Origin: Octopus vulgaris
Taxonomy: Eukaryota
Assembly (NCBI GenBank): GCA_951406725.2
Contig: OX597831.1
Location: 62,001 to 126,000, forward strand
Direction: 5' to 3'
Length of the DNA stretch: 64,000 nucleotides
Under the pieces are notes generated by a model. It saw nothing but the letters and a program-made list of their open reading frames with translations, was not told where the DNA came from and did not search any database. A program made the position numbers and the translations under genes. Shown one piece after another: positions 38,445 to 39,032 of this stretch; within the stretch, counting starts at the first letter, position 1; every line of letters starts with the position of its first letter.

Positions 38445-39032
38445 TTTGAACCAGTTTAACCGGTTTGAACAAGTTTGAACCGGTTTGAACTGGTTTGACC
38501 CGGTTTGAACCAGTTTCAACTGGTTTGATCCGGTTTGAACCGGTTTGAACCAGTTTCAACTGGTTTGATACGGTTTAAACCGGACCAAACCGGTACAAAT
38601 CTAATAAAACCGGTTCAAACCGGATCAAAATGTCTGATGAAAATGTTTGATGAAAATGTTTGATGAAAATTTTTGATGAAAATGTCTGATGAAAATGTCT
38701 GATGAAAAATGTTTGATGAAAATGTCTAATGAAAAACGTTTGATGAAAGTGTTTGAACTGGTTTGATCCCGTTTGAACCGGTTTGAACCAATTTGAACCA
38801 GTTTGAACCGTTTTGAATTGGTTAGATCCGGTTTGAACTTGTTTGATGTGGTTGATCCGGTTTGAGCCGGTTTGAACCGGTTTAATGTTTGATGAAAATG
38901 TCTGATGAAAAATCGGATCAAACCGGTTCAAACCGGATCAAACCGGATCAAACCGGTTCAAACCGGATCAAACCGGTTCAAACCGGATCAAACCGGTTCA
39001 AACTGGTTCAAACCTGATCGAACCGGTTCAAA
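38445..39032. repeat. 10-bp satellite (GGTTTGAACC / CCGGTTCAAA / CCGGATCAAA)n in alternating orientations
   Basis: Forward at about 38445-38578 and 38751-38883; reverse at about 38579-38627 and 38913-39032. Confidence 0.93.
38627..38750 (+). repeat. 13-bp minisatellite (TGATGAAAATGTY)n, with two more copies at 38885-38912
   Basis: About 9 tandem copies read directly. Confidence 0.9.

Follow-up and report, generated by a model that had tools for sequence, protein, structure and literature searches.

Satellites dense in canonical transcription factor sites are known from Human Satellite 3 (HSat3), a single pentamer-derived family in megabase blocks for which binding is shown in the available text of the preprint, a text in which TFCP2, GRHL and MEF2 are not mentioned (bioRxiv 10.1101/2024.10.22.616524). 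In Caenorhabditis, the heat shock elements (HSEs) carried by Helitrons serve one factor, with binding shown, and travel in a defined transposon, according to the accessible part of the report (PMC6927752). A different kind of system is found in Tribolium madens, where two satellites derived from a 110-bp element form megabase (peri)centromeric arrays called macro-dyads; the term 'transcription factor' is absent from the available portion of that article (PMC13081366). As for the sites themselves, TFCP2/LSF recognises the tandem site CNRG-N5/6-CNRG and Grainyhead (Grh) recognises AACCGGTT (PMC5829564, in the section available), an asymmetric GRH1 consensus is printed in PMC9223585, and a consensus of ten letters for the fly Ubx/ftz Grh sites is printed in PMC7471608. 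Within the available parts of these three articles, natural sites consist of 2-4 half-sites in promoters or enhancers. We found no published description of a satellite made of CP2/Grh sites, or of the composites described below, in a literature search that covered mainly the main texts of open-access papers.

The 10-bp array and the composite satellite around it

The window analysed here is the whole 64,000-nucleotide stretch of Octopus vulgaris DNA, and positions without a contig prefix refer to it. As the first-pass annotation had described, the region 38445-39032 (588 bp) is an array of a 10-bp unit in four orientation blocks, +,-,+,-, with 41 units in total and the consensus TTTGAACCGG (Table 1). 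The pattern CNRG-N6-CNRG was matched 47 times on both strands; 500 dinucleotide shuffles averaged 0.32 matches and never exceeded 5. Within the same region AACCGGTT occurred 11 times, CCGGTTCAAACCGG four times on the + strand and twice on the - strand, and the fly Grh consensus had 15+13 matches. Like TFCP2/LSF and Grh sites, the unit thus carries CNRG at a 10-bp period, AACCGGTT and all ten letters of the fly Ubx/ftz consensus, so that the match in sequence was borne out. The fly consensus fitted 0.18% of shuffled units and an exact AACCGGTT 0.08%; CNRG alone, present in 43% of them, is a weak criterion. One quoted string, CTGGTTTGAACCGG, does not occur in the region, and the commonest variant was not CCAG or CTGG, but A6>T (13 of 41 units). 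The unit and its reverse complement are almost identical, the spacer reading TTTGAA forward and TTCAAA reversed, and its orientation therefore rests on two spacer letters.

Table 1. Modules of the composite satellite, in window coordinates
Feature	Position	Strand	Remarks
13-bp and 20-bp MEF2-like modules	1..17767		fold-back at unit dyad, centre 7687-7688; continues upstream to 22-bp NRF1-like array at contig start
Higher-order block	17766..36348	+	21-bp octamer-like module, 13-bp module, seven short 10-mer junction blocks
13-bp module CTATTTATAGATT, MEF2-like site	36375..38446	+	with TTTA runs
10-bp module, block 1	38445..38583	+	13 units, consensus TTTGAACCGG
10-bp module, block 2	38577..38629	-	4 units; short fold-back onto block 1, retained by sister cassettes (C14, C18)
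13-bp module TGATGAAAATGTT	38623..38756	+	about 10 units; elsewhere arrays up to at least 27 kb
10-bp module, block 3	38751..38883	+	12 units
26-nt spacer, two 13-bp TGATGAAAATGTT units	38884..38909	+	end of cassette A
10-bp module, block 4	38910..39032	-	12 units; start of cassette B
22-bp module	39037..40156	+	TCF WRE (CTTTGWWS on - strand) and RCCG helper site; right end of composite

The first-pass annotation missed that the array belongs to a far larger satellite. All of window 1-40160 is a single composite, which together with the upstream part of the contig spans C18:1-102160; the array is real, but it is one module of this 102-kb structure and not a stand-alone element. The module order along C18:1-102160 is a 22-bp NRF1-like array, the 13- and 20-bp MEF2-like modules, the 21-bp octamer-like block, the 10-mer array and the 22-bp TCF module. 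The MEF2-like label of CTATTTATAGATT and the octamer-like label of the 21-bp module are our assumptions. Seven shorter 10-mer blocks lie upstream of the array, at 17766, 21722, 25755, 26813, 29355, 32245 and 34702. The contig opens directly in the NRF1-like array of 22-mers, which alternates with SINE-like pieces of 150 bp in tandem (C18:1-9206, L021), and a block of telomere words was not found at its start. The same order of modules, one part of it inverted, is found in a second complex at C18:20.240-20.311M.

In the genome, which is 2.8 Gb in size and rich in microsatellites, a pattern of three 10-mer units had 259 exact matches, compared with 0 for a reversed control. The 10-mer module recurred in 21 of 27 examined regions, on 10 contigs; these regions (1,056,000 bases) were picked from the matches listed and not at random. 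The complexes examined span about 4-105 kb, megabase arrays were not among them, and the array at C4:167.0M is open on the left. The regions added a 9-mer and a 58/59-mer with a TEAD core, a 52-mer, a GCCAA 13-mer, a CRE-like 25-mer and others. Judged by their sequence, the 10-bp array is a small tile of a dispersed mosaic satellite, and its other tiles appear to spell sites of Wnt, Hippo and other regulators.

Several further members of the family were noted, namely the CRE-like TGACGT 25-mer, a 52-mer with a STAT-like word, the GCCAA 13-mer in alternating orientations, a 48-mer, and A/T-tract units of 12, 13 and 37 bp (G000:C11:20823446-20824400; C15:40681529-40686554; C11:20837953-20848988; C18:6430902-6442170; C4:6039447-6045997). 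The CRE-like, STAT-like and further labels of these modules are presumptive. At G000:C14:64407299-64419601 a multi-kb inverted duplication holds two copies of cassette A (see below) in opposite orientation, followed by a 42-kb array of the TEAD 58-mer at C14 64427314-64469311.

Genome matches to the array split at query base 471-474, which separates cassette A (38445-38909) from cassette B, composed of the inverted 10-mer and the 22-mer. Paralogs of cassette A, with 89-92% identity, are located on C14 and C18, and cassette B is found without cassette A on C5, C11, C13 and C15. The 26-nt spacer separates the opposed blocks 3 and 4, whose arms are about 80% complementary. Here the first-pass annotation had seen a potential cruciform between 38751-38883 and 38913-39032, and the pair is indeed present, with block 4 starting at 38910. 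An inverted 10-mer block after cassette A was found in 0 of 10 full-length sister cassettes (10 of 18 other alignments reach the end; three are loose, at 73-76%), and the facing pair is therefore a junction peculiar to this locus. A conserved cruciform is thus unlikely, and we rejected it in favour of a one-off join of two cassettes.

Would the inverted blocks nevertheless matter as DNA structure, in the form of a cruciform or hairpin? The available part of the Tribolium article proposes this for (peri)centromeric macro-dyads (PMC13081366). Inverted subarrays with fixed inversion points do occur in the octopus family, in that the fold-back of blocks 1 and 2 is inherited by the paralogs of cassette A and multi-kb inversions exist in the C18 and C14 complexes, and blocks 3 and 4 fold as a single strand at -102.5 kcal/mol. 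However, the block 3/4 pair shows no such fixed point, and -54.4 kcal/mol is retained after block 4 is flipped, because every unit is quasi-palindromic. Furthermore, 115 of 143 close block pairs share the same orientation, a 26-nt loop with about 20% mismatch disfavours cruciform extrusion, and several loci lie on a single contig (five regions on C13), in contrast to one centromere per chromosome. We consider a role of the inversions as DNA structure very improbable.

Variation within the 10-mer and its sister modules

Variation of the 10-mer was scored in 1,390 units, representing 958 distinct contexts, from 21 regions. Over these contexts positions 1-5 varied at 8-13%, C7 at 14% and G10 at 11%, and the excess was confined to A6>T (38%), C8>T (14%) and G9>A (12%). 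C8>T and G9>A are CpG transitions, and the CCAG and CTGG variants occurred at about the decay rate of a control transposon: CpG in the 10-mer decayed at 11.4% versus 5.2% at other C/G (2.2-fold, nine loci), and in a pogo-like MITE the figures were 21/918 versus 27/3188 (2.7-fold; 11 copies, with a twelfth, satellite-joined copy left out). The double change CTAG, which CNRG allows, was seen in 4 of 958 contexts against about 16 expected under independence, as plain deamination predicts. Alleles at or above 10% within a locus included C7>T once and G10 never (14 loci; too few for significance). When ranked against the rotations of the unit, CNRG came fourth and AACCGGTT sixth of ten, that is, with no core protection.

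The first-pass annotation had counted the restriction of variants to CNRG in favour of binding and had set non-random variation with respect to CNRG as a test. Neither argument held: the outer C and G of the core were about as variable as the spacer, CpG decay was control-like, and nearly half of shuffled units contain CNRG in any case. CNRG sparing was therefore rejected as evidence of binding, and the criterion gives no support within this genome. One linkage was also considered. T6 together with CCAG, the avoidance of which is predicted by the asymmetric GRH1 consensus, was seen 14 times compared with 31.7 expected (Fisher p 0.004, distinct contexts), and variant combinations respecting this consensus numbered 616 of 958, with 596 +/- 7.5 (maximum 620) after shuffling. 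This avoidance was confined to the C14/C18 lineage (50:1, and 20:15 outside it) and was not counted, since it is absent without C14/C18. Within this genome, a binding constraint on the 10-mer appears indistinguishable from no constraint.

Alternatively, the 10-mer could be a passenger, a quasi-palindromic minisatellite joined to its neighbours through shared words (TTTGAT, GTTTGA) and resembling CP2/Grh sites by chance, irrespective of what applies to the other modules. The flat profile, the control-rate CpG decay, the scarcity of CTAG, the 43% of shuffled units with CNRG, and the word TTTGAT that the T variant of the 10-mer shares with the 13-bp and 22-bp modules all agree with it; yet exact AACCGGTT and the fly consensus are rare by chance (0.08% and 0.18%), the 10-bp period is the same as the spacing of the tetramer, long exact sites make up several sister modules, and in another organism (organism E, below) the spacer changed and the core was kept, on four alleles from one run. 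We regard a chance resemblance as rather unlikely.

The sister modules presented a different picture. Core and non-core variation was compared for 13 motif placements on 11 units, with ranks taken against the rotations of each unit; the motifs were chosen after the units had been seen, and the copies are related rather than independent. The TCF WRE varied at 2.9% in the core versus 12.2% outside it (rank 1/22), NRF1 at 2.6% versus 16.2% (rank 1/22, resting on two related loci) and the TEAD 9-mer at 7.7% versus 27.1% (rank 1/9). For the TEAD 58-mer the values were 2.1% and 13.9% (rank 3/58), the latter likely inflated by C-run indels. The MEF2 modules gave weak signals, with 6.3% versus 8.0% for the 13-mer (rank 1/13) and 4.1% versus 9.5% for the 20-mer (rank 5/20, two related loci). 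No core sparing was found for octamer (20/21), NFI (9/13), STAT (18/52) or the helper as a whole (9/22), and CARE was borderline (2/13); octamer, NFI, STAT and CARE are kept as labels only. The MEF2, NRF1, octamer, STAT, NFI and CARE labels are our assumptions, and the TCF, TEAD and CP2/Grh motifs were taken from papers. TEAD and MEF2 sites are each present in two units that differ in period and flanks. At the level of the family the signal held, with the predicted TCF, NRF1, TEAD and, weakly, MEF2 cores spared.

The CpG of the TCF helper site gave an additional contrast. It changed at 2.8% versus 7.0% at other C/G of the 22-mer (0.4-fold) in the nine loci also scored for the 10-mer, and the CpG rate of the 10-mer exceeded that of the helper in 8 of these 9 loci. 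According to the available texts, the C-clamp needs the RCCG helper and is blocked by its methylation (PMC4267635), and CP2/Grh proteins need only the outer C and G of the core (PMC5829564). The contrast agrees with a requirement for the helper CpG and with tolerance of change at the CP2 centre, and it fits an evolution of the family shaped by binding. The 10-mer as an array of TCF helper sites (ACCG) is disfavoured, as its CpG decays freely.

Part of 38445-40160 was contained in 17 of 21 runs with five organism labels. In organisms B, C and D (one run each), all 30 bins of 38300-40400 were covered. In organism E (run X17), 8 of 30 bins were covered, essentially the 10-mer blocks, the uncovered bins being no proof of absence; in a second stretch with six modules, the same run again covered the 10-mer bins only. 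Run X17 contains an abundant repeat of 10-bp period with CCGG/CCAG cores and a changed spacer, without the other modules of the two stretches tested. Among the 28 differences listed for organism E, 12 were toward the consensus and 16 away from it, all 16 in the spacer (T2C 7, A6G 5, G4C 3, T3C 1), and both reference units with a broken G10 read G at 92-97%. This retention of the core relies on four distinct alleles in one run of contigs, C7 and G10 would be avoided by chance with a probability of about 41%, and mapping favours similar reads. For this module in particular, organism E gives the best hint that the core is conserved.

The genome contains an exon for a DNA-binding domain of CP2 type (PF04516 match at G000:C4:34449832-34450092, one exon only), which matches CP2 better (E 1.5e-32) than GRHL1/2 (E 7e-12 to 5e-11). 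An exon-wise genome search, which can miss an exon, gave only this CP2-like exon and retrieved no Grh exon. Of the TFCP2/Grainyhead reading originally proposed, the sequence match is retained and gains from the encoded exon, while the argument from variants within CNRG and the cruciform are lost. If host factors bind the 10-mer, a CP2/Grainyhead protein would be the likely one.

Proposed growth, joining and spread of the arrays

Several joins in the composites occur at short words that are shared or self-complementary. The orientation flips at window 7687-7688, which is the dyad of a 13-bp unit, and at module joins both partners have a word in common, for example GTTTGA where the 13-mer meets the 10-mer. 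The pogo-like MITE is an element of about 0.85 kb that is flanked by TA target sites and present in at least 40 copies. One copy meets the satellite at a 9-base shared word with its left 280 bp gone (L032:1230-1820 = G000:C18:20311230-20311820); the pogo and HTH labels of the element are presumptive. A search of C18:20.17-20.27M did not recover the missing left part. As a source or carrier of the 22-mer the MITE was rejected, since 11 of 11 other copies examined were intact 0.85-kb elements without satellite. A 2.9-kb LINE with an endonuclease and RT-like reading, which we take to be CR1/L2-like, lies in a 13-bp array (L031:4893-7833; G000:C18:20304892-20307834), and its 3' end recurs as a short piece at window 43229-43299.

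We also considered whether the arrays could be internal or terminal repeats of a foldback transposon, a Helitron or a large virus-like element carrying enhancer arrays. The module order conserved in two 70-100 kb complexes and, as a precedent, the HSEs described in the available part of the Helitron report (PMC6927752) would suit such an element. At 20 array ends, however, no shared termini, target duplication or linked transposase were found (ends and Helitron end motifs were inspected by eye; one flank was empty in BLAST), and the flanks matched common interspersed repeats. In addition, the only transposon abutting an array is the separate MITE, cut at microhomology, and the sole coding gap that was read is the LINE insertion. 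A carrier of this kind is scarcely credible.

Our preferred reading, to which we assign a probability of about one half, is that the 10-mer is an interchangeable module of a mosaic satellite built of factor-site units, which spread by copying errors at shared or self-complementary words, and that binding of host factors, here CP2/Grainyhead, favours the units that multiply. Slippage would lengthen the arrays, and template switching at microhomologies of 5-9 bases would join modules and flip blocks, which would explain the nested inversions as by-products; longer copying events may seed new loci. The 10-mer might have entered the pool because it fitted a CP2/Grh site and its 10-bp period suited binding by the tetramer, with single copies decaying neutrally afterwards. 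The least certain step is that bound factors would keep the arrays open or unmethylated and hence copied more often, a selfish advantage that would need no host benefit; we infer the whole of this link from binding to amplification.

A benefit for the host is assumed if the composites are regulatory platforms (sinks, hubs or long-range enhancers) that collect Wnt, Hippo, CP2/Grh and other factors and are maintained by the host, comparable to human HSat3 for TEAD/YAP in the available preprint text (bioRxiv 10.1101/2024.10.22.616524). The spared cores of the sister modules and the coverage of all modules of 38300-40400 in three other organism labels are in line with this idea. Against it, the loci are scattered and unlike in content and size, with a LINE insertion and internal duplications; Rfam had no match in window 38000-64000, and no clear host gene was seen by eye among the ORFs of 40160-64000. 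Maintenance by the host seems improbable to us.

Other features lie in the window to the right of the composite. At 40860-41025, between two TA runs, arms of about 80 bp form an almost perfect inverted repeat around a loop of a few bases, and a GC-rich 70-bp tandem repeat of 2.7 copies is found at 45300-45487; a further 70-bp tandem is located 15 kb ahead of the C18:20.24M complex. ORF fragments on the - strand at 49058-49585 and 63245-63526 resemble pieces of a Penelope-type GIY-YIG endonuclease.

Significance of the family and comparison with known systems

The interest of these data lies in the family more than in the 588-bp tile, as the 10-mer is among the least constrained modules and the cruciform is incidental to this locus. 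What makes certain short words expand into satellites has long been debated. In the octopus family about ten modules stand side by side in the same loci and are unlike in core sparing, and they thereby serve as internal controls, one of which is the protected helper CpG versus the freely decaying CpG of the 10-mer. Confirmed binding would show that the turnover of satellites is steered by transcription factors of the host, and the arrays could then titrate Wnt, Hippo and CP2/Grh factors. We tentatively put forward, as possible though doubtful, a broader picture of a non-coding selfish DNA family that collects homotypic arrays of ideal sites for host signalling and pioneer factors (TCF with helper, TEAD, MEF2, NRF1, CP2/Grainyhead), shuffles them into mosaics and is copied via the bound factors, the 10-mer being an ancient module that survives in another organism as a free satellite, or has evolved there anew.

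In comparison with natural CP2/Grh sites, the octopus units form runs of 4-25 in satellite DNA, and their critical C and G show no measurable sparing. The family resembles the Caenorhabditis HSEs, as far as the available text describes them (PMC6927752), in that repeated factor sites are multiplied and spread by repetitive DNA, but no carrier element was found in octopus. With the macro-dyads of Tribolium madens, in the part of the article available (PMC13081366), it shares intermingled satellites, inverted subarrays, fixed inversion points, transition zones and a minor satellite that acts as a cassette; unlike them, it comprises over ten short modules, which occur many times along a contig. 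With HSat3, as presented in the available preprint text (bioRxiv 10.1101/2024.10.22.616524), it has in common a tandem organisation with a high density of canonical factor sites; the TEAD core GGAATG is one of them and is present in two octopus modules. In contrast to HSat3, the octopus family consists of separate 9-59-bp modules of putative binding sites in homotypic arrays, shuffled into dispersed complexes of about 4-105 kb. Taken together, the family would work like HSat3 and appears to be built like the Tribolium macro-dyad mosaics, and it is a member of neither.
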